The notes below the pieces were generated by a model. It was not told the origin of the DNA and ran no database searches. It saw only the letters and a list, made by a program, of their open reading frames with translations. The position numbers and the translations under genes are program-made. Below, in pieces: positions 20,809 to 48,834 of a stretch of DNA of 64,000 nucleotides (its first letter is position 1; every line of letters starts with the position of its first letter). Source of the DNA: an uncultured Candidatus Rokubacteria bacterium (lineage in GTDB: Bacteria; Methylomirabilota; Methylomirabilia; Rokubacteriales; DASRDR01); contig CAWDVE010000016.1 in NCBI GenBank assembly GCA_963805625.1, positions 288,001 to 352,000 on the forward strand, read 5' to 3'.

Positions 20809-21325
20809 CTAGGACGCGGCGGAGCAGCCCGGCAATGGCGTCCCGGGGTCGGCGCAGGCGGCCCCGGAGGCTCCCTTGAGCCGGCGAACAGGTGGCGGAC
20901 AGGCGGGGACGACGGCGTCCCGTGGTGGGCGCCTTGCGCGGCAGGTCAGACGGCCGAGACCGCCTGCCCTGGCGGCGGCTCGGCGGCGAGCCCGAGCGCC
21001 GCGAGGAGCCGTCGCATCGCGTGCGGCTCCGTCACCGCCCCAGAATCCGGCGCGGGCCGCCGCAGCGCGGACAGACCCGGGCCTGGATCGCAAACACCCG
21101 GCGCAGGAGCTGGGCCGAGGGCCAGCGGCGCGGAACAGGCGTCGACGCCGCCCGCGCGTCGGCCGGCGCCGGCGGCGGGACGATCGCCGATCTCCAGCGG
21201 GCACGCGGGGCCAGGACGCCATGGTAGGCCGGCAACGGCCGGCGCGGCGGGGGGACGAGCGCGGCCAGCCGCTCCAGCGGATCGAGGAGCAGCGCGGTCG
21301 AGCCGTCACGCCATGGTCGGCGGAA
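20809..21325 (-). mobile_element. IS91/ISCR-family transposase 3' fragment and truncated 3' end (remnant 1)
   Basis: PWRDGSTALLLDPLERLAALVPPPR..YHGVLAP..W..LLRRVF..CPRCGG..RRLLAALGLAAEPPP; ends at CTAG. Confidence 0.82.
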
Positions 21326-21372
21326 GTGAGAGCAATGCTGCCCCCTGGGACTTGCCGGGCTGCTGCCCGGTA

Positions 21373-22011
21373 CTATGCGGTCCCGGGCCGGCTGGTTGGG
21401 TTGAGCGATTTGAAGGCGAACGCCGCCGCGGCCCCTCCCAGCAGTTCCGCAACGATGTAGAGCCACAAGTTGGACCACGGGAGCAGGCCCCGGATCGAGG
21501 CGCCGATGGCGACGGCCGGGTTGAAGGCCGCTCCCGACACCTGGCCGACGGCGAATGCGCCAGCCAGGACCGTGAAGCCGATAGCCAGACCGAAGTAGGA
21601 ATTCCCGTCTGTTGCGTCGGCTGTGGCCACGTTCAACACGACGTACACCAGCGCAAACGTGAAAAGGAACTCGGCCAGAAATACCCCAAATACGGTGGCA
21701 TGGAATGGACTCACGGGCGCGCCGCGAAGGGCGAAGCCGATGATCCAGGCCGCGCCGGCGGCACCGAGCAGTTGCGCCCCCCAGTATGGCAGCAGGTCCG
21801 AGGCAGGACACCGCCCCCGCAGGAACACCCCGAGCGTGACTGCCGGGTTGTAGTGGGCGCCCGAGATGTGGCCGCCCGCATAGATCATCGCCATCAGCAC
21901 GGCCCCTATGGCCAGCGGAGCAATCACGCCCGGAGCCGCTGCGAGCCCCGTGCAGCCGATTGTCAACACGAGAAAGAACGTCCCGATGAATTCCACGGCG
22001 TACTTACGCAT
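21373..22011 (-). CDS. Aquaporin (MIP family)
   Basis: AVEFIGTF, GHISGAHYNPAVT, SGAAFNPAV; six TM helices. Confidence 0.93.
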   Translation of the reverse strand: MRKYAVEFIGTFFLVLTIGCTGLAAAPGVIAPLAIGAVLMAMIYAGGHISGAHYNPAVTLGVFLRGRCPASDLLPYWGAQLLGAAGAAWIIGFALRGAPVSPFHATVFGVFLAEFLFTFALVYVVLNVATADATDGNSYFGLAIGFTVLAGAFAVGQVSGAAFNPAVAIGASIRGLLPWSNLWLYIVAELLGGAAAAFAFKSLNPTSRPGTA

Positions 22012-22076
22012 GGCGCGTCCTTTCGTCCTGATCGGCGGACCTCTTGTTATCGTGCGCGGCCGACGACATCAGAATC

Positions 22077-22310
22077 CTAGGCGGTCCAAATCCTGTTTCC
22101 GCCCCCTCCCCGATCCCGCCGTCAGCCCAGCGGGCGCATTCCCAGGGTGGCCGGACTCTAGCGCGCGGCAGGCCGGTCCGACAAGGCCGGAGCGAGCCGG
22201 GGCGGCTTGGGGAGACGTAGTGAGAACCGGCTCCCACGGGTCGGCGGGCAGACTGGGACGGCGGCGGGAGGTGGACGCCGGGATCGACGGCGGGTCACGA
22301 GGCGGTGATC
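22077..22310 (-). mobile_element. IS91/ISCR-type oriIS-like end (remnant 2)
   Basis: Homologous to 48010-48240 and 32301-32410; terminus TTTG-GACCG-CCTAG; keeps the last transposase codons (TAS*). Confidence 0.75.
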
Positions 22311-22579
22311 ATGGCAAGCCTGCGCACCGTAGTGAGGCAGTTCGTCCTGGAACAACATCGCGAGGTCCTGAGTCTCACCCCCCGGGACTGTTGCCCCGTA
22401 TTGACAATTCCAGGGAGCGTCGCGGGGCGGGCGGCAGCGTGAGCGCAACGCGGAAGGCAAGTGCTTCGCCCACAAGCCAAAGCGCCCCCCGCAACCACGC
22501 TTCGTGGTATTAGCTCGAGAGCCGGACTCCGTTGGCGACCTTCTCCCCGTCGTCTGTCTTCGGATGCGGCGCGCTCACC

Positions 22580-23386
22580 CTAGGCTGCCCGCTGACGCAT
22601 GTGGACGTGCGCCTCGGCCGCAGGATACCCCGCCGCGCCGAAGGTCGCGCGAATCGACGCGTTGGTGTCGAAGTACACTTGCCAGTAGTGCGCGTTGTTG
22701 CAGTAGGGCCGCACGGCGAGGACCGGTCCCCGCTCAGTGAACGTCAAGATCTCGACGTCAGGCTTTGGCTCGGCGATCACGCTCGGAATCGTCGGCAACA
22801 CTGCCTTCAGGCGGCGGATCGCGTCAAGCGGATCCACACTGTGGTCGATCTGCGCCAGAAGCTCCACCCGGCGATACGGATTGCTGCTAAAGTTCTTGAT
22901 GGTTCCGCCCATGATCTTCGCGTTCCCGACCAGCGTCTGAACGTTGTCAGGGGTATCGATCGTGGTGCTGAACAAGCCGATCGCCCGCACGGCTCCCTCG
23001 ACGTCACCCGCCATGACGTAGTCGCCGACCTTGAATGGCCGGAGCACGAGGATGAAGGTCCCGGCAGCGAAATTGGACAGAAGCCCGCCCCAGGCCGCGC
23101 CAATCGCGACGCCGAGACCGGCCACTAGAGCGGCGAACGAGGTGGTCTCGATCCCGAAATAGCCTAGGAGCGCGACGACAAGAATGACGTTGAGCGCGAC
23201 GGTGACGACTGATCGAAGATAGCCGATGACCGTCGGCTCCACCTGTTTCCGCTCGAGCGCGCGCGTGAGGAGCCTGGCGGCAAGGCCGATCAGCTGGCGG
23301 CCGACGACGAAGGCGACAATCGCCCCCAGCACCTTGAGACCGAACACAATCAGAATGGGTCGGGCTGATTCAAGGATCTCGGGCAT
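22580..23386 (-). CDS. mscS: Small-conductance mechanosensitive channel
   Basis: GIETTSFAALVAGLGVAIG..LSNFAAG..RPFKVGD..NFS.NPYRRV; GAGGAG RBS. Confidence 0.92.
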   Translation of the reverse strand: MPEILESARPILIVFGLKVLGAIVAFVVGRQLIGLAARLLTRALERKQVEPTVIGYLRSVVTVALNVILVVALLGYFGIETTSFAALVAGLGVAIGAAWGGLLSNFAAGTFILVLRPFKVGDYVMAGDVEGAVRAIGLFSTTIDTPDNVQTLVGNAKIMGGTIKNFSSNPYRRVELLAQIDHSVDPLDAIRRLKAVLPTIPSVIAEPKPDVEILTFTERGPVLAVRPYCNNAHYWQVYFDTNASIRATFGAAGYPAAEAHVHMRQRAA

Positions 23387-23495
23387 GTCCTGGGCTCCTC
23401 GTTGCGGGTGGTGGGTTGGACCTCGCGCCTCACTCCAACGGCACGGCCGATAGCCGGGCGGGAGCGAGCTTCATGTCGACTACCACGTCGAGTCG

Positions 23496-23510
23496 TCAAG
23501 CCATGTGCCA
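23496..23510 (-). promoter_or_regulatory. Putative sigma54 promoter upstream of mscS
   Basis: Minus strand TGGCACATGGCTTGA (GG-N10-GA), 110 bp upstream of the start. Confidence 0.45.
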
Positions 23511-23679
23511 CACAGATGCGCGACCTGCTCGACGCCTCGGCGCCGTATGCTTCGAGCTGTCCCCGCGGTGCTCTGTCCTCGCCCCGGGTCGAGCGCGCGG
23601 GCGGTTCGCCGGTGCACACGAGGGAACCGGTTACGTCGACCCGAAGAAGTTGGCGGCCTAGTTCGTCGGTCTCGCCAGA

Positions 23680-23785
23680 GTGTCGCTCGCATTCGGCCTT
23701 GGCCTACGTTGGCTCCCGCCATCCGTCACCCCGGCTGTAACGTGAATCCCGCCGTGACGGTCGGCTTGTGGCCGGAGGGTCCGCA
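23680..23785 (+). pseudogene. Decayed aquaporin Z fragment
   Basis: VSLAFGL followed by GCNVNPAVTVGLW (AqpZ loop B motif) in shifted frames. Confidence 0.55.
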
Positions 23786-23788
23786 GAC

Positions 23789-24065
23789 CTTAGGTTCCCA
23801 AGCGCGCTCTTGATCATGGCGCGCCTCCGGCCCGGGAGCCTGCCCGGGCGGGACTACGGTAGCGCACCTCAAGGCGCGGCGCGAGGCGAGTGGGCCGACT
23901 CGGGACGCCGAGGGCTGGCGCGGCGCGGCCCTCGGCTCGGCCGGCAGACCGAGGCGGCGGGGGGGTGGGGACGCCATGATGAGACATGTGATGGGATGGT
24001 GGTCGCGCGGCTGGGGCCAGCAGGGTCTGGAGGCGGCTCGGCCGCCAGCCTGAAGGCCGCGCGCA
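23789..24065 (-). mobile_element. Diverged IS91/ISCR-type 3' end (remnant 3)
   Basis: Encodes AAFRLAAEPPP (compare AALGLAAEPPP); CGGCAGACCGAGGCGGCGGGG..GGACGCC block resembles remnants 2 and 5; terminus CTTGGGAACCTAAG. Confidence 0.55.
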
Positions 24066-24324
24066 ACAGCTACGAGTTCGGCGGCCAGGCCTCGCTGGCC
24101 GGATGTCGCCGTGAATCGTGTGCACCAGCGGGCGTGACAGGCGTAGGGTCATCCCCTACGGAATGAGATCGATCCAGTATGTGGTCCGCTCTGTGTAGCA
24201 CTCTGCAAATCCAGCCCTCGATTTGAACCAGCGACTCTTGAGGGGCTTGAGGTTTTAGTCCCGTCGTCTTTTCCGGGCCGATTGTGCTAGATGCCATTGA
24301 GTTCGTTGGCGAAAACGTGATCGC

Positions 24325-24351
24325 GGCTCAAACACGGGTTCGAATCCCGTT
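24325..24351 (+). other. tRNA T-arm fragment (Glu/Asp-like), possible att-site relic
   Basis: AACACGGG-TTCGAAT-CCCGT is a perfect T-arm; no D-arm or acceptor stem. Confidence 0.6.
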
Positions 24352-24498
24352 AGCCGACGAGGCGAGCGCGGCGTAGAGCGAGAGGCTCGGATCGGCGCGC
24401 GTTGCGGCGCCGGATGGACAGAACCTCCGGTCGAGAGTTGACGCGCCGCACTACCGTTCGAAGCGGACAAGCGGACACCCTATAGGAAAGAACCTGTC

Positions 24499-24550
24499 CG
24501 TCCGGTTCGTACGGGACCACGAATGGGTCCCCGTACTCACGAACCGGACG
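24499..24550. repeat. Imperfect inverted repeat (origin-like hairpin)
   Basis: CGTCCGGTTCGTACGGGACC / GGTCCCCGTACTCACGAACCGGACG; preceded by GCGGACA x2 and the CCTATAGG palindrome. Confidence 0.6.
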
Positions 24551-24605
24551 TGCGATCCGGATGTCCGGGCGGCCAGTTCGGCAGGCACGCGTCCGCCCTC
24601 CCTCC

Positions 24606-25100
24606 TCATCGGCTGGCGAGCGCCCACCGGCAGGGCCGAGTGCCGTCGACGAGGACCACGCGCCCCTCCTCGCGGAGGCGCCGCACGGCGCGGCCCACGG
24701 TGGCCCCGGGCGCGCCCATCTGCTCGGCGAGCTCGGCGACCGTGAGGGCGCCGGCGGCGAGGGCGACAGTGACGCGCTTGCTCACGCTCGTGCGGGCGAT
24801 GAGGTCCGGCGCCTCCGCGAGGTCGGCGTCCGCCACCGTGGCCGCGCTGCTGGACTCGAAGCGGAGACGCAGGCCGAACGAGAGCGCCCGGCGCCCGCCG
24901 TTGGATTTCCGGTGGTAGGCCGCGATCAGGAGCTCGTCGGGCCCGGCCTCCGCGGCGCGGCGGAGCTCCCAGGCGGAGCGCGCGAGGTTCCGGACGAACA
25001 CCGACCCGTAGGGGCGCGCGGCGCCGCTCAGCTGGTCGGCGGCGGCCTTGCTGACGTGCGCGAGCACGACCGCCGCCAGGAGCCGGCGGCCGTCTGGGCC
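24606..25100 (-). pseudogene. C-terminal half of a RepA/AAA_25-type phage or plasmid helicase with winged HTH
   Basis: VLAHVSK..RPYGSVFVRNLARSAWEL..YHRKSN, then LTVAELAEQMG..VGRAVRRL; no Walker A. Confidence 0.55.
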
Positions 25101-25186
25101 GACGAGGTCCTGAGCGCAGAGAGCGTCTCCCGGATTCGACGAGGGGTCGAGCATGCGGGCTCGACTCGCGCCGGCGCGGCCCCCGA

Positions 25187-26242
25187 TCACTCCGAAGCTT
25201 TTCGACGGTAGTCCGAAGGCGTCGAGCCGGTCCAGCGCTTGAAGGCGCGGTTGAAGACGCTGACCTCCGAGTAGCCGAGCAGGTAGGCGATGTCGGTGAA
25301 CGTGTTCTTCGGGTCCCGGAGGTAGCTGAGCGAGAAGCGCCGGCGCGTGTCGTCAACCAGTGCTTTGAAGTCCACGCCGTGCTCCCTGAGGCGCCGCTGC
25401 AGCGTGCGCGGGGTCATCGCGACCTTCCGCGCCACCCGGGTGAGCGTCGGGTTTCCATCGCGGATCGATTCGCCGACGATGCGGCGAACGGACGCGAGCA
25501 GGGCGTCCTCCCGCGGCATCTCTTTCAAAACCCCGTCGAGGTAGCGCTGGAGAACCGGGTAGAGCCGCTCGTCTGCCGCCGGGATCTGCCGCTCCAGGAA
25601 CGCGCGCTCGACGACGAAGGCATTGGTCGCGCAGCCGAAGGACACCGGCGCGCCGAAGATCCGGCCGTGCTCGGAGGTCTGGCGCGGCGCCTCGTGCGCG
25701 AACTGCACCTCGAGCGGGACCCACCCGCTCCCCACCATCAGGCGGAGCGTGTTCAGCCCGACGGTCATGCTGTACTCGTTGTGCTGGCGAGGGGCCTCGA
25801 TCGGCAGGTTGGCGAGCCGGTGCCGAACATACGCGAGCCGCCCCTCCATGCCGAGAGACACCTGCGCGGCCTCGTTGTGAACGCTCAGGTAGCGCCCGAT
25901 GTTCGTGAAGCCGTCCGCGATCGTCGGCGAGTTCAGCGCGACGTAGGTCAGGGGCCCGACGTCCTTGGGATTGTAGGCGGCGCCGAAGTGGAGGCCGAAG
26001 CAGTCATCGCCCGTGGTCCGGGCCGCCTCTTCGAGGATCCGGGTGAAGTCGGCGCAGGCGATGAACCCGTCGGGGCTGGCGAAGGCCGAGCGCTCCAGCC
26101 CGACCGAGCGCAGGATCTGGTCGGGATCTCCGCCGGCCTCTTCGATCGCCTCGATCAGCCCGGTCGCGGCGGAGAGAGCGATCAATGGTCTCTTGGGCAC
26201 GACCCGAGTTCCCACATCGGCCCGAGCGGCGAGCCGGCCCAA
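25187..26242 (-). CDS. AraC-family regulator (Arabinose_bd_2 type)
   Basis: GDDCFGLHFG, MTPRTLQRRL, IAYLLGYSEVSVFNRAFKRWTGSTPSDYR; true start may be slightly downstream. Confidence 0.9.
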   Translation of the reverse strand: MGRLAARADVGTRVVPKRPLIALSAATGLIEAIEEAGGDPDQILRSVGLERSAFASPDGFIACADFTRILEEAARTTGDDCFGLHFGAAYNPKDVGPLTYVALNSPTIADGFTNIGRYLSVHNEAAQVSLGMEGRLAYVRHRLANLPIEAPRQHNEYSMTVGLNTLRLMVGSGWVPLEVQFAHEAPRQTSEHGRIFGAPVSFGCATNAFVVERAFLERQIPAADERLYPVLQRYLDGVLKEMPREDALLASVRRIVGESIRDGNPTLTRVARKVAMTPRTLQRRLREHGVDFKALVDDTRRRFSLSYLRDPKNTFTDIAYLLGYSEVSVFNRAFKRWTGSTPSDYRRKASE

Positions 26243-26243
26243 G

Positions 26244-26306
26244 TGTCAAGCCGGCGACGCGCAATGTCAAGACGAGGAGCGTCCGACAGACAAGGAGCGT
26301 CCGACA
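26244..26306. promoter_or_regulatory. Direct repeats upstream of araC, candidate operator
   Basis: TGTCAAG at 26244 and 26265 (21-bp period); AGGAGCGTCCGACA twice immediately after. Confidence 0.45.
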
Positions 26307-26551
26307 CGCCTCGTGTCTACGGCGGAGAAGGCCGTCGCCGCTGCGCCCGGTCCCCACCACCAAGGCAACTCCCGCCTCACGGAGCACCCGTTGGCCGCCG
26401 CTTCCAGGTCCGGATGACGGTCGGGTAGATGTCCAACTCGCTGCTATCAAGTACGAGTCGATTCACGTGTCAAGGAATTGTCGTCGACTGCCAAGACAGC
26501 GTTGCCTGCGACGCACTAGTGTTACGTGGCGCCACGGGTGTTCCATCCACT

Positions 26552-26932
26552 ATGTCTGATGCCCGCCGTTTCCGGATGCTCCTGATCGACGACGATCAGA
26601 ACGTGCGAGAGGTGCTGGCGCAGCTGCTCGCCTCGTTCGGATACGAGTGTCAAACGGCCGGTGACGCCGTGAGCGGGCTGGGTCTCTTCGATAGGGGGGG
26701 CTGGGATCTGGTCCTCCTCGACATCGCCATGCCCGCAATGAGCGGGTGGACGGTCGTGGAGACGATCCGGCGACGCGACCCGCTCTTGCCCATCGTCCTC
26801 ATCACGGGGCTGAGCCAGCCCGCCGTGATGCGACGCGCTCGCGAGTGGCGGTTGCCGGTCCTCCTGAAGCCCTTTCGCTTTGAAACGGTCCAAACGATTG
26901 TGGCCACGGCCCTGCAACCGAAGTCCGCCTAG
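26552..26932 (+). CDS. Single-domain response regulator (receiver)
   Basis: LLIDDD, DLVLLDIAMPAMSG, LITG, LLKPF. Confidence 0.85.
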   Translation: MSDARRFRMLLIDDDQNVREVLAQLLASFGYECQTAGDAVSGLGLFDRGGWDLVLLDIAMPAMSGWTVVETIRRRDPLLPIVLITGLSQPAVMRRAREWRLPVLLKPFRFETVQTIVATALQPKSA

Positions 26933-27399
26933 CACCGGCTGAGTGATCCGCATTTCGTGCTCACGCGTGAGAGGTGATTGGACCAGCCCCAAGGCGGTGT
27001 CCGCCGCGCGGGGCTACGAGGACTTCCGGCGCGAGGGTCCATCGCCCAATATGGGACGGCGGGCTCCCAGCGCCGCAGCGGATTCGCCGTCTGGCCGGGC
27101 TCCCGGATCGGCACCAGCTGCCACCAGCCGTCGCCCACTGGCACCGGGAGGTACTCGGTCGAGCAGTCGCACCAGTCCGGAATCTGCAGCGTCTGGGGCG
27201 GCCGCCACCCATGCGGGCGGAGGTCCTCTGCGCGGAAGCGCATCGGGGCGACCTCGCGCCCACACGTCCAGCAGGCCAGCGTGGGCTGGCGTCGGCCGTG
27301 GGCGTCGAGCCAGGTCGGTAGTGTCACGGTGTCTGGCTTCTCATGGGCGGGCCGGTTGTGGACATTTTTGTCGCGCCTCACTGGACTCTTGCCACGCAC
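26929..27399 (-). CDS. Hypothetical protein with Cys motifs
   Basis: CWTCGRE..WCDCSTEYLPVP; start uncertain. Confidence 0.4.
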   Translation of the reverse strand: MRGKSPVRRDKNVHNRPAHEKPDTVTLPTWLDAHGRRQPTLACWTCGREVAPMRFRAEDLRPHGWRPPQTLQIPDWCDCSTEYLPVPVGDGWWQLVPIREPGQTANPLRRWEPAVPYWAMDPRAGSPRSPARRTPPWGWSNHLSRVSTKCGSLSRC

Positions 27400-27879
27400 G
27401 CAGTCCGGGGCGCATCCTCAGCGAAACGTCGTCGGCATGGAAGAGTCTAGTTCAGTCAAGCCCCATGCTCCCTTAGGGGACTCCGCGCCCGCCGCGTTGG
27501 ATCTGGCATCGTCTTGCAAGCCTCAGTAAGCTCGACGACCAAAGGAGAGGAGAGACGTGGGCAATGTGGCCAGCACCTCACACCGAGTCCTTCCTGACGA
27601 GCGTTGCGTGGCGGCGTGAGCGCGAATGGGTCCGTCGCCAACCGCTTGCCGTGGCCGAGGGCTATCTGCGAGCGCTCCGGTGTTTCGACCCGGCACCGCC
27701 CGATGCTTGGCCACGCGAGGTGGAGTTGCTGGTTCAATCGAAAGCAACGCAGTCTCGCCCATCACGGCAAGCAGCACGTGACGGGAGGATGATGCACCAC
27801 CGAACTGGCTAGTCCTGCGTCACTACTGGATGATCTCATCTGCCCGCGCCAGCACCGCCGGCGGGATCGTCAGGCCGAC

Positions 27880-28045
27880 ACCCCGGTCTGCAAGCCGACG
27901 CAGCCTTTCGCCTTCTCCGCCTGGTAGTACACCTCGCGCTCGTCGTGGAGGTATCCGGTGACATATCCGGTGGCGTGCGGGGTGCTGACGATCCGGTTCC
28001 GCAGTGTCAGCCGACCGGGCGCGGCGGAGTGAATAGGTGGGGAAA
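27880..28045 (-). pseudogene. NADH:flavin oxidoreductase (OYE) N-terminal fragment
   Basis: GRLTLRNRIVSTPHATGY..YYQAEKAKG.VGL. Confidence 0.65.
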
Positions 28046-28103
28046 GTGAGAACTCATATTCGATCACCTCATCCGCCCGCGCCAGCACCGCGGGCGGGGT
28101 TCG

Positions 28104-28490
28104 TCAGGCCGAGCGCCTTCGTGGACTCTTCGCTTTACCCTTCGCTTTCCGCTTGTCTACGGACTTGGAGGTGGGCGAAGGTGGAGCTGCCATCTTCCGA
28201 ACATCCAGCACGACATCGTGCCACCAATGCTCAGCGGGTGCGCTCTCTAGCCCTTCGAGTCGTTGGCGCGTCTCTGCGAATGTCGGATCATGGTGCCATC
28301 CATCCCAGTCCACGCGGGTCCTCCAGGTGCCAACGATCACTCGTTTATCTTCATTGTCGGCGGGGCGAAGGAGTTGTCCTCCTATCCAACCTGGTCGCGT
28401 CCTCGCGGCCGACAGACGCCTGCGCATGACGGCGTCCCAATCTCGTCCGGCTCCTGGCTTCAGGTGCACATGCGTCACGATTGTCTTCAT
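28104..28490 (-). CDS. Antibiotic biosynthesis monooxygenase (ABM) domain protein
   Basis: PGWIGGQLLRP..VIVGTWRTR.DW..WH; GGAGG RBS. Confidence 0.8.
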   Translation of the reverse strand: MKTIVTHVHLKPGAGRDWDAVMRRRLSAARTRPGWIGGQLLRPADNEDKRVIVGTWRTRVDWDGWHHDPTFAETRQRLEGLESAPAEHWWHDVVLDVRKMAAPPSPTSKSVDKRKAKGKAKSPRRRSA

Positions 28491-28718
28491 CGGGAAGCCT
28501 CCAGGCCCGCGAGTGGGCCGCTGTAAGTGTCACTCTATTACCTCGTACGCCCGCGCCAGCACCGCGCCCTGCGAGCCGATGACAAAGGCCTCCTCCTCTT
28601 CGAGCCCCCGACTGGCCCACTTCCATGCCCCCAGCAGGGCAAGCGATTCCGCGACCGTCGCCGCGATCCCCAGTGTGCGCCGCACGTGCGGAAAGAGGTG
28701 CAGTATGAAGCCTGAGCC

Positions 28719-29572
28719 TTCTGCCACGGGCTCTGGGGCGCGGTCAGTACCTCCCGGATTCCCATGCCCTTCACGCGGTGCCGAAACGCGTGACCGTAGA
28801 TCGTGTCGCGATCGCGGAGGAGGTAGGACGGCGCGGTGTCGTCCGGGAACGCGTCCACGATCTGCTGGGCGGTCCAGGCCGCGGTGGGATGCTCGGTGAC
28901 GTTGAAGTGGACCACCCGCCGCCGATGGTGGGCGAGCACGACGAGGACGAATAGCACGCGCAAGTGCGCGGTGGGCACCGTGAAGAAATCGATGGAGACG
29001 AGGTCCCGGACGTGGGTGGTGAGGAACGTGCGCCAGGTCTGCGACGGCGAGGGGCGCCGCGTTGGCATCAGCCGGGAGACGGTGCGCTCGGCCACGTCGA
29101 TGCCCAGCTTGAGCAGCTCGCCATGGATTCTGGGGGCACCCCATAGGGGATTGGCGGCGGCCATTTGGGCAACCAGCGCGCGGATTTCGGGGGCGACCGG
29201 CGGGCGGCCCACGACGGAGCGGCGGGAGCGCCGGGTCCAGTAGTCGCGGAACCGTCGCCGCGGCCAGCGCAGGACGGTGTCAGGGGGCGACGATGATTAA
29301 CGCCTGCGTCCAGCCTCTCCACAGCCTGGACAGCGCGACCCAAAAGAGCCGGTCGCCGCGGCGCAACCTCGGCCGGGCCACCGCCCTCCTGTACACGGTG
29401 AGCTGCTGGCGCAGGGCGAGGGTCTCGAGGGCGAGCTGGCGGTGGCCGCCGCAGAGGAACGGGAGAGTCGGAGCAGGTGGAGCAGCGTGCTGATCATGAG
29501 ACGGCCATTGTCTCCGGATCAGAGCCGAGAGATCAACCACTTGGCCAGCGGATGGAGTTTTGGCGAAGAACA
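28719..29572 (-). mobile_element. 5' part of an IS481-like element (frameshifted transposase)
   Basis: ANPLWGAPRIHGELLKLG, SQTWRTFL, DFFTVPT, YLLRDRD; terminus GGATGGAGTTTTGGCGAAGAACA; homologous to 58992-59553. Confidence 0.88.
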
Positions 29573-29791
29573 GGCGGGAGACCTTCCACGGGTGGCCGTG
29601 CGAAGAGGGATCTCCGGGCCGCGACTTTCTGGCCGCCGTCGACCGGGTGCCGCCGGGTCCCGGGGTGTCGTCTCAAGCGCCGTCAGGAGCGCGTGAGGAT
29701 GTCTTCGCCCGGCTGGGAGCCGATGGCCCGCGGCGCGTGCGTCGACTCCGTCACCAGTCCCTTCGGTGGGGACGCTCGTCTCGCGCGCGGC

Positions 29792-31119: not shown

Positions 31120-31135
31120 AGCAAGAGGGGTGCCA
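31120..31135 (-). promoter_or_regulatory. sigma54 promoter for the protease gene
   Basis: Minus strand TGGCACCCCTCTTGCT, canonical GG-N10-GC, 144 bp upstream of the start. Confidence 0.7.
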
Positions 31136-31363: not shown

Positions 31364-32029
31364 TTGGTGCGCGCCTATCCCGACCTCCTCATGAGCCACG
31401 ACGAGAAGGTCCTCATCTGGAAGGATGGAACCCGCATGCCAGCCTCGGACGGTCGCGGCGACAAGAGTTTCGAGGAAAAGCTGCGCAGCGCATCGATCCT
31501 GGATCAGCTCTCGATCCCCTACCCCCAAGGGCCACTCGAAAAGCCACCCGGGCTTCAGGAGGATCCTGGACGCTTCCGCAACACGACCTTCTTCGACAAG
31601 ATGTATGGCGACTGCTCGAAGGGCGAGGTGCAGAGGAAACTTGCAAAGGTGGCTTGGCTGCCGAAATCCGGCGGCGGCTCGGTTCAGATCACGACGGTGA
31701 ACGGCGTGGCGGACCGATTGCGCGCGATTTCCGGAGAGCTTGATGCTCTACGGCCTGACCTCAAGACGTTCGCCGTTCCGAGCGCCGGTACGTTCAACTG
31801 CCGCACCGTGAAAGACACCGGCGCCCGCAGCATGCATGCATGGGGCGCGGCCATCGACCTCGATACGAAATTCGCCGACTACTGGCTGTGGAACCCCAAG
31901 GGCGCCCCCTATCGGAATCGCTTGCCTTTCGAGATCGTGGAGATCTTCGAGAGGCATGGCTTCATTTGGGGCGGCAAATGGGGACACTTCGACACGATGC
32001 ACTTCGAGTACCGGCCGGAACTCCTTTGA
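31364..32029 (+). CDS. M15 family D-Ala-D-Ala carboxypeptidase-like peptidase (signal peptide apparently missing)
   Basis: DPGRFRN, GTFNCR, SMHAWGAAID, FIWGGKWGHFDTMHFEYRPELL. Confidence 0.85.
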   Translation: MVRAYPDLLMSHDEKVLIWKDGTRMPASDGRGDKSFEEKLRSASILDQLSIPYPQGPLEKPPGLQEDPGRFRNTTFFDKMYGDCSKGEVQRKLAKVAWLPKSGGGSVQITTVNGVADRLRAISGELDALRPDLKTFAVPSAGTFNCRTVKDTGARSMHAWGAAIDLDTKFADYWLWNPKGAPYRNRLPFEIVEIFERHGFIWGGKWGHFDTMHFEYRPELL

Positions 32030-32300: not shown

Positions 32301-32410
32301 CTAAGCGGTCCAAAGCCATTTCCTGACTCCTCCCCCGGTTCCGCCGTCCAGCCCGGAGGGTGAGGGTGGCCGGACTCTAGCGCGCGGCGGGCCGCTCGAC
32401 AAGGGCCGTG
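32301..32410 (-). mobile_element. IS91/ISCR-type oriIS-like end (remnant 4)
   Basis: Shares the 25-mer GGGTGGCCGGACTCTAGCGCGCGGC with remnants 2 and 5; terminus TTTG-GACCG-CTTAG. Confidence 0.7.
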
Positions 32411-32508
32411 GAGTGCTCCCCGGTTGAGTTAGACACGGATGGGGCCATCCTGCCGAGGCAAGAGGAGGGGGCCATGGGCGAGTGTCCCCGGAAGGCCGAT
32501 GGCCGGCG

Positions 32509-38671: not shown

Positions 38672-39631
38672 ATGAGGACCGCACGCTACTCGATCGTCGT
38701 CCCGCTGTACAACGAGCAGGATGTGCTGCCCGAGCTGTGCGAACGGCTCCGGGCGGCCGTGGCGCGGCTCCACGGTCCGGCCGAGATCATCTTCGTCAAT
38801 GACGGCAGCGCCGACGGGACCCTCGGGATCCTCAAGGCTCTGCAGTTCGAGGACAAGACCATTCGCGTCGTGTCGCTCTCGCGCAACTTTGGGCACCAGG
38901 CGGCCGTCTCCGCGGGGCTGTGCCACGCCGAAGGAGATGCCGTCGCGGTGCTCGACGGCGATCTCCAGGACCCGCCGGAGCTCCTGCCCGAGTTCTTTGC
39001 GAAGCTGGAAGAGGGTTGGGACGTCGCGTACGGCGTCCGCCGCCACCGCCGGGGCGGGATCCCGAAGCGGCTATCCTACTTCGTCTTCTACCGGCTGCTT
39101 CACCGGCTCGCCAACATCGATATCCCGCTCGACGCCGGGGACTTCTGCGCGATGCGCCGTCGGATCGTGGACCACCTGAACCGCCTGCCCGAGACCGATC
39201 GGTTCGTGCGCGGCTTGCGGGCCTGGGTCGGCTTCCGCCAGACCGGCATCCCGTACGAGCGCGATCGGCGGCGGGCCGGGATCCCGAAGTACACGATGTC
39301 CAAGCTCGTCCAGCTGTCCCTGGACGGCCTGCTGTCGTTCTCCTACGCCCCGCTCCGGTGGCTTGCGGTCGTCGGGTTCGTTCTGTGCGCGGTCAGCTTC
39401 GTCGGCATCCTGGTCGTCCTCTACCGCTACCTGTTCACACCGTACGTGCCCGGGTACACGTCCTTGGCCATCCTCGTCCTGTTCTTCGGGGGAGCCCAGT
39501 TCCTGACGGGCGGCTTGGTCGGCGAGTACGTCGGCCGGACCGCGCAGCAGGTGAAGGGCCGCCCGCTGTACGTCGTCGACGAGCTGATCGGCTTCCAGGA
39601 AGGGCCCGCCTTCCGGTCCTTCAGGAGGTGA
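38672..39631 (+). CDS. GT2 polyprenol-phosphate glycosyltransferase (GtrB-like)
   Basis: VVPLYNE, VNDGSADGT, LSRNFGHQ, DGDLQDPP; two C-terminal TMs. Confidence 0.9.
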   Translation: MRTARYSIVVPLYNEQDVLPELCERLRAAVARLHGPAEIIFVNDGSADGTLGILKALQFEDKTIRVVSLSRNFGHQAAVSAGLCHAEGDAVAVLDGDLQDPPELLPEFFAKLEEGWDVAYGVRRHRRGGIPKRLSYFVFYRLLHRLANIDIPLDAGDFCAMRRRIVDHLNRLPETDRFVRGLRAWVGFRQTGIPYERDRRRAGIPKYTMSKLVQLSLDGLLSFSYAPLRWLAVVGFVLCAVSFVGILVVLYRYLFTPYVPGYTSLAILVLFFGGAQFLTGGLVGEYVGRTAQQVKGRPLYVVDELIGFQEGPAFRSFRR

Positions 39632-42333: not shown

Positions 42334-42410
42334 CAGCGCACGGAGCGCGGTTCGTGAAGCCCGTCGGCCGGGGCCCGCCGACAGGTACGGCGAGCTGAAT
42401 AACACCTCCA

Positions 42411-42560
42411 TCATTCGCTGGTCCCGGGCGGGCGCGCCGCCCCAGTGTCGGGTCGGGCAGCGTTTATCAGCAGCTGTTTCGCGGGAAGTTCCTTGCCGTC
42501 GACGACGACACTCCACTTCTGGATTCTCCTTGGTTTGAACACGACGCTGTGGGGAGCGCT
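42411..42560 (-). pseudogene. Gene fragment
   Basis: PRRIQKWSVVVDGKELPAKQLL looks protein-like but has no good start; lower GC. Confidence 0.25.
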
Positions 42561-42991
42561 GCGGAGGATGCGTCTCCTATCAGAGGGTCGAGAGAAGATC
42601 AGAGGCGAGGGTTGCACAAGAGCGTGCGATAGTCTCTGCGGCCTCTAGCGGTTGGGCAGCGCGCGCCGCCATCTGTGATCCAAGGCTTGAGGAGTTCCCG
42701 AAAAGATCCCGAGGGTGCCGATAGCTGTCTGAGTTACCTCGATCGATGGATTAGTCCGCAAGAGGTTGTGGAGCCGCGGCATCACTGACCACCGCGACTG
42801 AGGAAGCGAGGGAAGGACGGATCGGCCCGATTCTCGGGCAGTCCGGCGGACGCCGCGTAGAATATGCGCCAGTCATGCGCCCCCCTAGGTCAGGGAGACT
42901 CGAGGGTCCAGATCGTCAGAATGGTGATGGTCGCCGAGCCCCAGCCGGCGTGACGAGCTTGGGGTCAGGCCCGCACCACGAGGAGGACGTC

Positions 42992-43483
42992 GTGCGAAGT
43001 AGCGGAAGAGCCGCCGTCGTTCGACGGCGACGGTTCCTGTCGATCCTGTCCCTGGCGGTGCTGGCTTCGGTCTCCGACGGTAGCAGCGCGGACCAGGCGC
43101 TCCCCGTCACCTCCCAGGCGCTCGTCGGCACCTGGAGGCTCGTGTCCGTCGAGGAGCGGCGGCCGAACGGTGAGACCGCCTACTGGATGGGGCGCCGACC
43201 GGTCGGTCTCCTGATGTACGACCGGACAGGAAACGTGTCGGTCCAGATCATGCGCGATCCATCGGTCACGGTGACGCCGGAGAACCGGCAGGACGGCTAC
43301 TACGCGTACTTCGGCCGCTACGACGTACGGGAGATCGAGAGCACCGTCGTCCACCGCGTCCAAGGCAGCATGCGGCCGTCCGAGATCGGCGCGGACTACA
43401 CTCGGACGGTTCGACTGAGCCGTGATCGCCTCGTCCTCGGCCTGAGCGCGACCCGGACCCTCACGTGGCAGCGTCTCCGGTAG
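42992..43483 (+). CDS. Lipocalin-like domain protein
   Basis: RRRFL signal; LVGTWRLVS, GLLMYD..G, AYFGRY, LTWQR. Confidence 0.82.
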   Translation: MRSSGRAAVVRRRRFLSILSLAVLASVSDGSSADQALPVTSQALVGTWRLVSVEERRPNGETAYWMGRRPVGLLMYDRTGNVSVQIMRDPSVTVTPENRQDGYYAYFGRYDVREIESTVVHRVQGSMRPSEIGADYTRTVRLSRDRLVLGLSATRTLTWQRLR

Positions 43484-45087
43484 CAACCTGGCTCGAGGAT
43501 GCGGTCATGGGTGCCCGCCTGGTGGGCGGTCTCCGTGCCTACCTCCGGAATCCCCTCACGCTGGTCGAGGCCCGTGCGATCCTTCACCGGCGGCTCGAGC
43601 GGCGGGAGGCCGACTTCCTCGCCCTGGCTCAGGGGGCCATCTTTGCCAACCCCCGGAGCCCGTACCGGACCCTCCTGCGTCTCGCCGGCTGCGAGCAAGG
43701 CGACCTGGAGCGCCTCGTGCGCCAGGACGGCGTCGAGGGAGCGTTGCGAACGCTCTTGCACCGGGGCGTGTACCTCACCGTGGACGAGTTCAAGGGGCGG
43801 CGCCCGGTTGTCCGAGGAGCCACGACCATTGAGGCCGGGCCGGCCCTGCTTCAGAACCCCCTGGCCACTCCGCACTTCTGGGGGATGACCGGCGGTAGTC
43901 GAGGAGCCGCCACCCGATTGCCCCTCGATCTCGCCTGCCTCCGCGATCGCGCGGTGAACCTCTACCTCTCGCTCGATGCTCAGGGAGGCGCGGGGTGGCG
44001 GAAGGGGGTGTGGGGCACGCCGAGCATCACCGCGCTGCTCTGGTATTCGGCCTGCGGTGGTAGGGCGGCGGCCTGGTTCTCGCAGGTCGACCCCGCCCTC
44101 CGGGGCCTCCATCCGCGCTACCGGTGGAGCGTGCGCGCGGTCACCTGGGCCAGCCGGCTGACCGGCGTCCCGCTGCCGCGGTTCCAGCACGTGCCGCTGG
44201 ACGCCCCGCTCCCGGTCGTCCGGTGGATGCGGGCGACTCTCGCGGCGGGGGCTACCCCACATCTCTGGGCCTTCCCAAGCTCGGCGGTCACCCTCTGCCG
44301 GGCCGCGGAAGAGGCGGGGATCGACATCGGAGGGGCCCGCTTCACCATCACCGGTGAGCCGGTGACGGCGGCGCGTCTCGCCGCCATCCGCCATGCCGGC
44401 GCTGTTGCGGTGCCCGACTATGGCAGCGCGGACTCCGGCGGGTCGGTCACCTACGGGTGCCTGCATCCCGAGGCGCCCGACGACGTCCACCTCTTCCAGG
44501 ATCTCAACGCCCTCATCCAGGCGGACACGCCACCGTTCCCGGCGGGCGCCCTGCTAGCGTCCTCCCTTCGGCGGACCGTGCCGTTCGTCCTCCTCAACGT
44601 CTCCATGGGCGACTGTGCCACCGTGACCGACCGGCGCTGCGGCTGTCCGATGGAAGCGCTGGGCTGGCGCACGCACCTCAAGGCCATCCGGAGCTTCGAG
44701 AAGCTGACCGCTGGTGGCATGACCTTCATCGACACCGACGTCATTCGAGTGCTGGAGCAGGTCTTGCCCAGCCGCTTCGGCGGGAGCCCGGTCGACTACC
44801 AGCTCATCGAGGGGGAGACGGAGGACGGTCGGCCTCGCCTCCGCCTGTTGGTGCATCCCCGTGTCGGACCGTTCGACGCGGCGGCCGTCGAGGCGGCCTT
44901 CCTGGACGCGGTCGGCGCCGGCTCCGGAGCCGAACGAATCATGGCGCACCAGTGGCGCGAGGGCCGTATGCTCCGCGTGGAGCGCGAGCCACCGCGTGCC
45001 GGCTCGGCGGGGAAGATCCTCCACATCTGGGCGCCGCGCCCGAGGAGCGGCGCCAGCGCCGCGAGCCGCGACGAGCGGGAGGGCTAG
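43465..45087 (+). CDS. Phenylacetate-CoA-ligase-like hypothetical protein
   Basis: TGGSRG loop, ITGEP, DYGSADSG, NVSMGD, CGCP, IRSFEKLT. Confidence 0.6.
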   Translation: MAASPVATWLEDAVMGARLVGGLRAYLRNPLTLVEARAILHRRLERREADFLALAQGAIFANPRSPYRTLLRLAGCEQGDLERLVRQDGVEGALRTLLHRGVYLTVDEFKGRRPVVRGATTIEAGPALLQNPLATPHFWGMTGGSRGAATRLPLDLACLRDRAVNLYLSLDAQGGAGWRKGVWGTPSITALLWYSACGGRAAAWFSQVDPALRGLHPRYRWSVRAVTWASRLTGVPLPRFQHVPLDAPLPVVRWMRATLAAGATPHLWAFPSSAVTLCRAAEEAGIDIGGARFTITGEPVTAARLAAIRHAGAVAVPDYGSADSGGSVTYGCLHPEAPDDVHLFQDLNALIQADTPPFPAGALLASSLRRTVPFVLLNVSMGDCATVTDRRCGCPMEALGWRTHLKAIRSFEKLTAGGMTFIDTDVIRVLEQVLPSRFGGSPVDYQLIEGETEDGRPRLRLLVHPRVGPFDAAAVEAAFLDAVGAGSGAERIMAHQWREGRMLRVEREPPRAGSAGKILHIWAPRPRSGASAASRDEREG

Positions 45088-45090
45088 GTC

Positions 45091-46359
45091 TCAGGACGGC
45101 GGCTGGCTCCTCCCGCTGCCGGTTGCGAGGCTCTTTGCCGTTGCTTCAGCGCCTCCGATGTCGAGCGGCAATCGCGGTACGGGCGGCGCCGCCAGGGTGC
45201 GGGCCATCACCTCGGCCAAGAGGCTCGGTGTGGTCGCGTCGGCGTCCACGATCGAGTCGATCGCCCCGGCCTTCTGGAACTTCCTCGCCTGCAGCATCTG
45301 CTCGCCGAAGTCGGGCGCATACCGTGGGAGGACGATGCCGCGGGTCGACGCCTGGTACAGCTCGGTGCAAGCGTTGTAGCCCGCCATCGAGATGACGAGC
45401 CGGTAGTGGTTCAACCGGCGAGCCAAACCGGGCACCACCCGGCTCAGGCGAACGTCGGCCCGACCATCCACGCGGCGAGCAATCTCCCGGTATCCCTTGT
45501 CCGGAAGCTGACCCCCCGTCACGATGTGGAGGGAGAAGCCCGGCTGGGAGGCCGAGAACTCGAAGAACGCCTGCACCACCAGGACGATCTTGCGGAAGGC
45601 GTCGACTCCGCCGCCGAATGTCGCGAGGATCTGGGCGGGAGGATCCATCTTCTCCGGGGGCGACCCGACGACATAGCCCATCACGTGGACCTTGGCCGCA
45701 ACCGTCCGGAACCATGGAGAGCCCTCGAGCAGGCTTGCTCTCTCGGAGGGATCCACGTAGACGAAGAGTCGATCCACCTGCTCGCTGAGCATCTGCTCGA
45801 CAAGCGATGCGTGCTCTCTCGCCCAGAGGCTCGTGGACACGCCGTTGAAGCCGGCGCAGCGGAGCGTCTCCGGCGAGTGCTCGCTCAGGTAGTCGAGGGT
45901 CGGGCCGCATTCCTCCACGGCTTGTAGCGGGCGGATGAACGGGAACCCCTCGAGCAGGACCGCGTATGGCCGGATGTGAGCCGTCAGGGCCCGCAAGAGC
46001 CGCCCACGATGCGCGGAGAACTGGTCGGTCGGAACGTGCGGTAGCGAGCTGACGCGATCCGGGAGCGGGAGCCGCTCCGGAAGGAAATTGGGAGAGCCGA
46101 TCCGGAACGCGGGTAGCAGCACTTCGCGGATCGCCTCGTGAGGCTCCTCTGGTTCATACTCCGGACACGAGGAGACGACGTAGGCGTCGAACGGGAACTC
46201 TTCGACCAAACGCCGCGCGATCTTGCGGCACCGGGAGATGTGGCCGTACGCGAAGCCCGCGTGGCCGAAGAACAGGACAGCCCGGCGGCGAGGCGGAGCG
46301 ACCCTCGCCGCCTCGGACACCTCGTTTACCGAGACCCGGCAACCGGGGCGGCTGTCCAT
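45091..46359 (-). CDS. GT-B glycosyltransferase (GT28-C-like)
   Basis: GYGHISR-type motif (AYGHISR), EGFPF, TFGGG.D, ISMAGYN, EQ..A. Confidence 0.75.
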   Translation of the reverse strand: MDSRPGCRVSVNEVSEAARVAPPRRRAVLFFGHAGFAYGHISRCRKIARRLVEEFPFDAYVVSSCPEYEPEEPHEAIREVLLPAFRIGSPNFLPERLPLPDRVSSLPHVPTDQFSAHRGRLLRALTAHIRPYAVLLEGFPFIRPLQAVEECGPTLDYLSEHSPETLRCAGFNGVSTSLWAREHASLVEQMLSEQVDRLFVYVDPSERASLLEGSPWFRTVAAKVHVMGYVVGSPPEKMDPPAQILATFGGGVDAFRKIVLVVQAFFEFSASQPGFSLHIVTGGQLPDKGYREIARRVDGRADVRLSRVVPGLARRLNHYRLVISMAGYNACTELYQASTRGIVLPRYAPDFGEQMLQARKFQKAGAIDSIVDADATTPSLLAEVMARTLAAPPVPRLPLDIGGAEATAKSLATGSGRSQPPS

Positions 46360-46685
46360 CGGACGCGTGCATCATACGGAGCCGCCGTCGGACCGGCAAG
46401 CACGGGCTGACGGCGGAACGGGCCGGCTGGCAAGACGTCGATCGAGCCCACGCGCTCCTGCTGAGGGCACTGGCCCGCGGAGGGCGGACAGGGCGGGGCG
46501 TTCGATGGTTACGTGACGCGCATTACGGAACCATCGGCACGACCCGTTGCACGGGAAGGAACGTAGGAGATCCTACCCACGTTTCTTGGTCCCGTTCCTC
46601 CGCCCCCGGCCCCCCGCTCGCGGCGGTCACGCCTCCAGCGCCGCGCCTGCACCATAGCGCTGCAGGGTGCCCGGATGCCTCGGCG

Positions 46686-47933
46686 TCACGCTCCGCGGCG
46701 ACGTTCGGCCACGTCCTCCAGCGCAAAGCCGGTGACGCGCTTGTAGTCGTCGGAGAGCCGCCGCAGCTCGGCCTGGGTGATGTAGCGGTCGAGGTCGTCG
46801 AACGGCCTGTCGCCGACGAGCTCCTCCACGCGCCCAATGATGTAGTCCGGCGGGTGCTCGCGGTTGGTGCGCACGACCTGGGCTGTCGGCCCGCAGCGCG
46901 TGGTTTCGTAGGCCGTGAGGGCTGCCCGGGGATCACCGCCCTCGGCCAGGCGGTCGGCGAGCACGCGCGCGTCGAGGATTGCCTGGGCTGCGCCGTTCGA
47001 GCCGCGCGGGTACATCGGGTGGGCGGCGTCCCCCAGGAGGGTCACGCGGCCGAAAGTCCAACGATCGACGGGGTCCCGGTCTACCATCGGGTACTCGAAG
47101 ATGACCTCCGAGCGGCGGATCAGATCGGGAACGTCGAGCCAGTCGAATCTCCAGTTCGCATAGATGTGGATGAAGTCTTCGAGCTGGCCCGGCTTGTTCC
47201 AGTCGTTCCGATCGTAGCCCGGCTGGGCGACCTGGGTGGTCCAGTTGATGAGCTGATTCCCCTCGCCATCGACGCCGTCGATGATCGGATAGATCACGAT
47301 GTTACCCGTGTGAATCGAGCCGGCGCGCACGTAGCTGCGACCGGTCAGGAACGGCTTCGCCCGCGTGACGCCGCGCCACGTGTTGATGCCGATGAAGCGC
47401 AGTTCCTCGTCCGGGTAGAATTGCCGGCGCACGGCCGAGTTGACGCCGTCGCACGCGATCGCGATGTCGGCCTCGACCGGCGCGCGCGCCGCGCCGGTCG
47501 GGCCGGACCGGAAGTGGAGGGTCACGCGCTGGTCGGTCTGCTCGAGCCCGACGCATTGATGGTCGGTGAGGATGCGCGCGGCGCCGAGCCGCGCCACCGC
47601 GGCGTTCCACAAGGTCAGATGGACCCGGCCTCGGTGGAGACCAACCTCGGGGAAGGGATAGCCCGCGAACCGGCCGCGCGGCTCGGCGTAGATGAGCTGG
47701 CCAAAGCGGTTGAAGAAGCAGCTCTCACGGTTCTCGATGCCCTGGCGCGTCAGTGCCTCGCCGAGGCCGAGCGCCGTCATCTCGCGCATCGCGTGGGGCA
47801 GCAGCGTGATCCCGACGCCCAGTTCCTTCACCTCGGGCGCGCTCTCGTACACGCGGCAGGGGATGGCGCGCTGGTGGAGGGCCAGCGCGAGAGTGAGCCC
47901 CCCGATCCCGCCGCCGACGATGGTGATGTCCAT
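46686..47933 (-). CDS. FAD-dependent monooxygenase
   Basis: IVGGGIGG, ACDGVNS, YPMVDRDP, LLGDAAHPMYPRGSNG. Confidence 0.9.
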   Translation of the reverse strand: MDITIVGGGIGGLTLALALHQRAIPCRVYESAPEVKELGVGITLLPHAMREMTALGLGEALTRQGIENRESCFFNRFGQLIYAEPRGRFAGYPFPEVGLHRGRVHLTLWNAAVARLGAARILTDHQCVGLEQTDQRVTLHFRSGPTGAARAPVEADIAIACDGVNSAVRRQFYPDEELRFIGINTWRGVTRAKPFLTGRSYVRAGSIHTGNIVIYPIIDGVDGEGNQLINWTTQVAQPGYDRNDWNKPGQLEDFIHIYANWRFDWLDVPDLIRRSEVIFEYPMVDRDPVDRWTFGRVTLLGDAAHPMYPRGSNGAAQAILDARVLADRLAEGGDPRAALTAYETTRCGPTAQVVRTNREHPPDYIIGRVEELVGDRPFDDLDRYITQAELRRLSDDYKRVTGFALEDVAERRRGA

Positions 47934-48009
47934 GAGCCCGATCCGCCTCCGGTGTCAACCTGACGGGGCGCCTCCACCGAAGCGCCTCACTCGCGCGCTG
48001 ATCAGGAAC

Positions 48010-48290
48010 CTAGACGGTGCAAAGCCTGTTTCCTGCCCCCCCTCCACGACCCCGCCGTCAGCCCAGCGGGCACATTCCCCGGGGTGGCCGGACTCTAGCG
48101 CGCGGCCGGCCGGCCCGGCAAGGGCCAGAGCGGGGCCGGGCGGGCTGGGTAAGATCCGGCCCCCGCGGGTCGGCGGGCAGACCGGCACGGCGGCGGGAGG
48201 TGGTCGCCGAGACTGACGGCGGGTCACGAGGCGGTGACGGAACGGGGCGGCCGCGGCTGGGGCGCCAGCCCGAGCGCGCCGAGCAGGCAC
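48010..48290 (-). mobile_element. IS91/ISCR-type 3' end (remnant 5)
   Basis: LLGALGLAPQPRPPRSVTAS* then the conserved end TTTG-CACCG-TCTAG. Confidence 0.78.
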
Positions 48291-48834
48291 GGCGCTCCTC
48301 TTGGCCCCGCTGGAATTGTTGGAACGGCTGGCGGCCTTGGTGCCCCCGCCGCGCCGACCGTTGCTCGCGTACCACGGCGTGCTGGCCCCGCGCGCTCGCT
48401 GGAGATCGGCCATCGTGCCGAGGCCACTGCCGGCCGACGTGCGGGCGGTGGCGGCGCCTGTCCAGCGACGCTGGCCCTGGGCCCAGCTCCTGCGCCGGGT
48501 GTTCGGGTTTGACGTGCTCGTGTGTGACCGCTGTGGCGGGCCGCGGCGGATCCTCGGCGCCGTGACGGAGCCCCACGCCGTGCCCCGTCCCCGCCGCCTG
48601 ACCCGCGGTCGATCGCGCTCCCCACCCCGGCGTCGCCGGTCCCGTCCGTCCGGCGCCGCTCCGGCGCCGCTCCGGCGCCGCGGGGGACGCGTCCTGGGCC
48701 CTCCCGTGCCGACCGCCGGCGGCCCTTGCCGGCCCCGCCGGAGCCGCGCTATCGTTCCGGCGGCAGCCACCGGCGGCCGGGGGGCGGGCCGACGTGACAG
48801 AGGGCGGGACGAGGGGGCCGAGAAACGTGCCTAG
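48285..48834 (+). mobile_element. IS91/ISCR-family transposase 3' fragment and end (remnant 6)
   Basis: PLELLERLAALVPPPRRPLLAYHGVLAP..WAQLLRRVFGFDVLVCDRCGG; ends GTGCCTAG. Confidence 0.82.

Follow-up and report, generated by a model that had tools for sequence, protein, structure and literature searches.

What are the short homologous repeats scattered through a 64,000-nucleotide (nt) stretch of an uncultured Candidatus Rokubacteria genome (assembly GCA_963805625.1, contig CAWDVE010000016.1, positions 288,001 to 352,000; hereafter the window, numbered from its first letter), and do they drive the genes that lie beyond them? A sequence-only reading had described them as six orphan 3' ends of IS91/ISCR-type insertion sequences (IS), forming a non-autonomous family reduced to the origin (ori) that rewires the expression of adjacent genes. 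Comparison with relatives identifies the repeats as genuine oriIS (3') ends of an IS91 element of the ISCR branch. We consider it probable that they are the surviving ends of decayed ISCR-type IS, most of which retain a predicted sigma70 promoter pointing outward, likely feeding the next gene and likely kept after the transposase was lost.

A whole element in a relative, the likeness to ISVsa3 and the tetranucleotides beside the tips together mark these repeats as true oriIS ends of the ISCR branch: (i) G017, a genome of the same family, contains what the sequence-only reading had proposed to look for, a full Y2_Tnp gene with the same end. Its 472-aa open reading frame (ORF) carries PF14319 (Zn_Tnp_IS91) and PF04986 (Y2_Tnp), both above cut-off, as well as an HFH motif, and the transposase fragments of the window are 75% identical to this element. 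The G017 copy is itself probably dead, because it lacks the Tyr present in an intact-looking protein from G003. (ii) The G017 transposase shares 39% identity with ISVsa3-type transposases across 93% of its length, and the ISVsa3 end, which reads GGGCGTTT-N6-CCTATAC and continues into GTTG, has the layout of the ends described here. (iii) In 42 of 72 complete ends, counted in this genome and its relatives with orthologous junctions not collapsed, the tip abuts GTTC, GATC or CTTC exactly, against a background of 1.8%, and sequence conservation falls off after position +3 beyond the tip. The IS91 family inserts next to a GTTC/CTTG-type tetranucleotide adjoining oriIS (10.1101/2025.01.24.634351), and the anatomy of ISCR elements has been described (PMC13393415).

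The conserved tip sits ~210 nt past the transposase stop, and the leaders of relatives start near a GTATC motif ~130 nt before the start codon; none is present in the window. Comparison of leader and tip, by element blast and repeat scan, gave no match indicative of terminal inverted repeats. None of 7 single strands of oriIS folded better than its shuffles (z -1.06 to +2.11), which lends no support to a structured RNA or a strong hairpin, short imperfect hairpins being still possible. No clean empty site was found, the left and right flanks differing in origin, and a search for related loci with the transposase tail returned 5 distant loci only. At L011 (G038:C36), a distant ISCR element of full length has similar copies of the 3' end of a gene on either side.

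How complete are these elements in the genome that carries the window (G000; 28 contigs, contamination 6.26%)? A profile hidden Markov model (HMM) of the oriIS end, with matches kept at E up to 0.1, found 31 ori matches, whereas a leader (5') HMM found 2, one of them a seed; the latter was built from 8 sequences and its sensitivity is below that of the ori HMM. Transposase pieces cover the N-terminus only 1-2 times and the C-terminus 7-10 times, so that the predicted excess of 3' over 5' ends is borne out genome-wide. No intact transposase was found in the 28-contig assembly, although an unassembled copy is possible, and Pfam recovers three partial Y2_Tnp matches and one Zn_Tnp_IS91 match, none of them joined. 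The best pair of copies is 91% identical, and the copies belong to several subtypes, vary in length and have scattered left (5') breaks. Unlike a MITE-like (miniature inverted-repeat transposable element) family, they are thus neither near-identical nor of one length. Nor do they start at target-like tetranucleotides as IS801-type miniatures do: these occur at 13 of 47 left breaks against 32% expected, in a set of 64 blast pieces from which breaks inside the element were kept and 3 distant loci dropped, with breakpoints fuzzy at 72-89% identity. Copies at most 91% alike with scattered, unenriched breaks point to a decayed series and not to a fixed non-autonomous family. We conclude that this is a nested truncation series of several subtypes, and that the system looks dead in this genome. 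DNA matches to the end are present in 15 of the 21 genomes of the family, with up to 27 per genome, and intact-looking distant transposases are found in the same genus (G003). A near-identical stretch shared by C1:34561-34730 and the end of C10 (2196386-2196581) reflects either assembly overlap or strain mixture.

Do the surviving ends carry promoters? A sigma70-type outward pattern had been predicted from copies in the window, and its frequency, its match to the host and its conservation all support that prediction. Of the 62 ends long enough to include it, 48 carry the pattern TTG[ACT][CT]N-16/19-TANNNT 40-110 nt inward from the tip (median 78 nt), always with a spacer of 17 or 18 nt. The middle bases of the -10 vary by subtype (GAG, TCG, GAC, CCC, TGG, CAC, CAG, CCT) around a constant TA and T, and in an alignment of 16 chosen diverse ends, five of the seven invariant columns are the TTG and the first and last T of the -10. 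The host's own upstream regions contain the same pattern in 10.4% of 1780 cases; it is found in 0.3% of shuffles and in none of 222 convergent regions, and TAGAGT is the host's commonest -10, also when ori matches are removed. Downstream of distant transposases a looser pattern is found in 10 of 18 cases and the strict one in 4 of 18, so that the promoter derives from the full element. Among 43 subtype-A copies, key promoter bases deviate in 24 of 258 cells (9.3%) and key tip bases in 60 of 387 (15.5%; p 0.023), a comparison weakened by subfamily structure and HMM selection. RNA word shares of 0.07-0.14 come from contig-only runs, which carry no information on starts or strand, and do not count as evidence. 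The promoter is probably active and fixed in front of some genes.

In the window itself, ends had been placed at 20809, 22077, 23789, 32301, 48010 and 48834, sites whose homology far exceeds chance, and the ori HMM scores five of these six sites at E <1e-18. The tips at 22077, 32301 and 48010 (minus strand) were confirmed and that at 23789 moves to 23790, but 20809 and 48834 are not tips. Copy 1 (oriIS region 20747..20945, minus; HMM E 2e-22) ends at 20747, then GTTC; position 20809 falls in its -10 hexamer, within an outward pair, TTGCCG-18-TAGACT (20835-20806), that had been overlooked. Copy 2 (22077..22308, minus) carries TTGTCG-18-TAGAGT at 22184-22155 and is followed by GATT. Copy 3 (23790..24061, minus, with a short transposase tail) is a repeat of a divergent subtype with a poor -35, to which the ori HMM gives only a marginal score (E 0.71 within the window); its tip at 23790, then GGTC, is nevertheless a true end, because the orthologues in G014 and G008 end in CCTAC followed by GGTC. 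Copy 4 comprises the last 120 nt of oriIS (32301..32420, minus), with TTGTCG-17-TAGAGT at 32402-32374 and CTTC beyond the tip, and faces a convergent M15 peptidase gene (31367-32029, plus) 271 nt off. Copy 5 (48010..48285, minus), which keeps the ~20 last transposase codons, has TTGCCG-18-TAGAGT at 48121-48092 and abuts GTTC. Back to back with it lie an internally deleted ISCR transposase 3' fragment (48288..48602, plus) and the oriIS region of copy 6 (48603..48843, plus), with TTGCCG-18-TATCGT at 48726-48755; here 48834 is an internal motif, the degenerate tip lies ~9 nt further, without a target tetranucleotide, and a 5'-truncated AAA_16 ATPase ORF follows. A seventh end had escaped attention: copy 7 (46563..46659, minus; HMM E 0.0016 in the window), the last 97 nt of a second ori subtype, with a -10-like TATGGT lacking a -35, and then GTTC.

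Outward pairs are therefore present in five of the seven window ends, and the four reported earlier (copies 2, 4, 5 and 6) read as described. So do the 25-mer shared by copies, which occurs 3 times in the window and in 0 of 100 shuffles, and the lack of any 5' end or full transposase in the window. The description of the ends as having little or no transposase tail fails for copies 1 and 6, each of which keeps about 100-130 transposase codons: aa 337-469 of the 472-aa protein of the relative in copy 1 (20946..21343, minus, with one frameshift near 21040) and aa 369-452 in copy 6. A Pfam search of the window's tails gave no match, since they lie beyond the Y2_Tnp model, and an Rfam scan placed no family on the ends. 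The genes said to be co-oriented with copies 2 and 5 are indeed so: aquaporin Z (aqpZ; PF00230; 21373..22011, minus), between copies 2 and 1, starts 65 nt beyond the tip of copy 2, and an FAD-dependent monooxygenase gene (PF01494; 46686..47933, minus), between copies 5 and 7, starts 76 nt beyond that of copy 5. The gene of an MscS small mechanosensitive channel (mscS; PF00924; 22580..23386, minus) is found 403 nt past copy 3, and what copies 1 and 6 face are fragments of genes.

Is the orientation of neighbouring genes non-random, as the sequence-only reading would have it? Across the relatives it is, on the downstream side only; in this genome alone it does not reach significance. The relatives' set, a subset of the listed matches in relatives plus 9 metagenome loci, held 70 ends with a called downstream gene, which collapsed to 61 distinct genes; 53 of these 61 are co-oriented (null 56%, p 3e-7), compared with only 35 of 58 upstream genes (downstream versus upstream, Fisher p 0.0015). 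The enrichment of starts within 100 bp is likewise seen in relatives (14 of 61, versus 10%) and is weak here (5 of 24, p 0.12-0.30), although a co-oriented gene does lie within 200 nt at 11 of the 24 complete ends of this genome (p 0.005-0.025). Co-oriented genes are also faced by all nine tip-less pieces scored here (9/9), of which 5 were taken from the HMM list and 4 were added, one weak C11 match being left unscored. The bias is real across the lineage and specific to the promoter-facing side. It cannot discriminate between a benefit to the neighbour, the removal of antisense copies and a preference at insertion.

We demonstrate here the identity of the ends, the tetranucleotide at their tips, the 3' excess, the conservation of the promoter type, the downstream-only bias of the relatives and the location of gene-plus-ori modules at different loci in different genomes. 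The mechanism that we favour would proceed as follows. As the ori is obligatory in each rolling-circle insertion, later deletion of the variable 5' side would leave a nested 3' series; transcription would start ~70 nt inside the tip and run outward through it; ends reading into a co-oriented gene would be tolerated or favoured while antisense-reading ends were lost ('promoter fixation'); and, with transposase available, an ori landing downstream of a gene might let that gene and its upstream ori be copied elsewhere. Ori-gene-ori rows such as copy 3-mscS-copy 2-aqpZ-copy 1 and copy 5-monooxygenase-copy 7 would be the outcome.

Several results weigh against promoter fixation. In this genome the next downstream gene is co-oriented at 15 of 24 complete ends (null 52-54%, not significant), the upstream gene at 14 of 24, and adding copies 3 and 7 gives 17 of 26 (p 0.11-0.16). 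All orientation counts depend on a purpose-built dicodon gene caller of our own make, and counts across relatives are not independent, given the kinship of these genomes. The median distance to a co-oriented gene is 182 nt; ends with the promoter pattern intact face a co-oriented gene in 37 of 40 cases and those without it in 16 of 21, a weak contrast (p 0.08); and a standard promoter scan misses these sites, which score <9/12 matches. Left junctions lacking a terminator-like tetranucleotide leave one-ended transposition unsupported as the source of the truncations. Finally, the ori at the aqpZ junction is eroded to differing depths in the five relatives aligned, and its promoter is kept only in G009; it was lost in the other four with the gene intact, and hence is not needed there. 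A possible native promoter, read by eye, lies just past the ori tip in relatives (for example, CTGAAG-18-TAGCTT in G008). A 28-nt deletion in the window (22012-22076) trims this native promoter, so that the main candidate for driving aqpZ would then be the promoter of the ori.

The rival that survives best is that the ends are neutral relics, in which the promoter is merely inherited and of no use to the neighbours, and the bias stems from insertion-site preference (5' regions of genes, on one strand) or solely from the removal of antisense copies. We regard this as possible but clearly less probable than promoter fixation. It accommodates the non-significant bias of this genome, the loss of the promoter upstream of aqpZ in most relatives, the many tip-to-gene distances of >300 nt and the gene fragments faced by copies 1 and 6, and the fragments of IS801 have mostly been ascribed to rearrangements (PMC3189936). 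However, it sits poorly with a bias restricted to the downstream side, with promoter bases that outlast tip bases, and with the position of tip-less, promoter-only relics, which precede intact genes by 73-107 nt and in one case precede the same gene in G013 too. This last relic, at C17:558689-558750 and at L277 (G013), stands ~73 nt ahead of a 734-aa gene that is the same in both genomes and is the clearest candidate for promoter fixation.

Did the ends also move the genes that they flank? In relatives, aqpZ and mscS are separate mobile modules at other loci, with different flanks and 89-97% identity; in G019 the identity of aqpZ reaches 97%, against 78-80% for the core genes of that genome. 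The ori-aqpZ junction is common to G009, G014, G008 and two metagenome contigs, and the junctions of copies 2 and 3, being shared with other species, are old. In G013 and G008 the monooxygenase gene follows a different ORF, whose place is taken here by the ori of copy 5, and the homology of G013 to the window spans 48006 to 46659, exactly the two ori borders. Ori pieces cluster: 30 of 44 lie less than 20 kb from another, against a random mean of 9 and a random maximum of 23, and both members are on one strand in 15 of 20 neighbouring pairs (p 0.02). This pattern fits serial rolling-circle capture, but also ordinary island turnover; the ends are probably former movers of the genes they flank.

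In a second rival reading, the ends would be the repeated joints of gene-cassette arrays. Such arrays would grow as a transposase acting in trans captured genes one after another by one-ended rolling-circle transfer, and every ori added would bring a promoter for the gene behind it, as in an integron without the integrase. Besides the clustering and shared strand of the pieces, such arrays would account for the row of four same-strand ends with genes in between on G003:C12 and for the ori on both sides of aqpZ, here and in G008. A precedent is the ISCR28 sandwich, a gene between an upstream oriIS remnant and a downstream oriIS (10.1101/2025.01.22.634252, citing Yuan et al. 2024), although there the downstream element is complete, whereas both flanks here are remnants. 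We nonetheless think array building unlikely: module borders differ among genomes and are not fixed, the left borders lack a target-like tetranucleotide, a downstream ori is missing at aqpZ in 4 of the 5 relatives inspected, accessory islands would by themselves lead one to expect clustering, and no ori-tip-to-ori-tip joint (circle junction) was found among the contigs of 8 runs, although contigs cannot show its absence.

A related reading, which we consider doubtful, is that ISCR ori ends act in this lineage as a dispersed capture-and-expression system, in which transposase in trans copies a gene from the downstream ori back through the upstream one. If so, genes such as aqpZ, mscS and that of the monooxygenase would move from genus to genus, each already equipped with a promoter, and accumulate in same-strand arrays, a bacterial parallel to gene capture by non-autonomous Helitrons, with the promoter then fixed by selection.

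The weakest alternative, a non-autonomous ori-only family still transposing as a unit and placing promoters before genes, is very improbable and largely refuted for this genome: IS801 yields mobile ori fragments of 229-679 nt (PMC3189936), G015 carries a pair of copies with internal deletions that agree in all of 130 nt at their 5' end, and the genus holds the intact-looking transposases of G003, but here no copy pair exceeds 91%, lengths and subtypes differ, the assembly yielded no intact transposase and the junctions of copies 2 and 3 are old. The two copies in G015, L123 (G015:C203) and L124 (G015:C115), keep both the 5' leader and the ori tip and are candidate recent two-ended minis.

How does promoter fixation by these ends compare with known systems? 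The closest is ISCR1, whose oriIS bears the proven outward promoters PCR1-1 and PCR1-2 (POUT) and is followed by co-oriented genes in 84% of 1127 cases (PMC6218425); according to the same source, ISCR transposition has not yet been demonstrated experimentally. As in ISCR1, the ends described here place a sigma70 promoter, predicted in our case, between the transposase stop and oriIS, and in relatives the next gene is mostly co-oriented (53/61), which in this genome is not significant (15 of 24). However, ISCR1 is one intact element tied to class 1 integrons with tested promoters, whereas the present ends are decayed, chromosomal, of several subtypes and present by the dozen, each with one predicted promoter. 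ISCR2/ISVsa3, already noted for its transposase, shares a similar tip layout and a GTT-type run past the tip, but is intact and plasmid-borne with the tip CCTATAC, while the tips here read CCTAC or CCTAG. The miniatures and truncated copies of IS801 are also 3'-coterminal IS91-family fragments keeping the right end (PMC3189936), but the miniatures start at a target-like tetranucleotide and have their intact parent element in the cell with them, two features that were not found here; the available part of that source reports no promoter role for them. In the cases of ISEcp1 and ISAba125 (PMC9330008), as here, the element is mostly deleted and its promoter end remains before a gene; those are single resistance-gene cases from other IS families, whereas the present ends are spread across a lineage, before metabolic and transport genes. 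A large IS survey found IS91 under-represented between convergent genes (PMC9208149).

In the literature searched, which included few subscription papers and no supplements, no account of orphan ISCR ends across a genome, combined with a test of orientation, came to light. The basic ingredients are known; the genome-wide scale in an environmental bacterium is what differs. ISCR outward promoters and gene capture have so far been known from a few clinical elements, and this lineage supplies dozens of natural ends per genome, with a downstream-only bias and a promoter outlasting the tip, which makes promoter fixation testable in bulk. With its intact-looking transposases and marked cargo genes, it would also allow ISCR capture to be tested directly.

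Another family of 3'-coterminal relics was noticed. The last gene of an ssb - Rad52/22 - PD-(D/E)XK operon has 10 matches in this genome, mostly 5'-truncated, which end at the stop codon and then continue into differing DNA. Sites are C22:66551-68869 (L119), C1:8254, 9612, 20418, 33586 and 34551, C10:688581, C16:3331 and C7:41289, with further ones at G003:C12 (L177) and G017:C721 (L065). The PD-(D/E)XK gene stands directly before an ISCR transposase leader in G017, at C16:3427 and at C1:33590; in G003 it forms a fusion with a transposase tail and an ori. That ssb-Rad52-PD-(D/E)XK might be a fixed part of the element was weakened, since the flank contained the nuclease at only 1 of 47 loci with a transposase N-terminus (partly redundant, with ~1.5-kb flanks).

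The mosaic region that holds the oriIS ends of the window starts at a tRNA-Thr gene and a phage-type integrase gene (13649..14996), likely the left edge of the accessory island that holds the ends; with helix-turn-helix (HTH) genes and a DnaB-like helicase, positions 13649-17188 resemble the start of a prophage or of an integrative and conjugative element. The same island contains pieces of another IS with HTH and rve_3 domains, duplicated at 19767-20115 and 58526-58877 and at 28719-29572 and 58992-59553 (94-100% identical), and a c-di-GMP-I riboswitch (19165-19246) lies before a secreted protein gene (17739-19037) with a perfect 372-nt tandem duplication.

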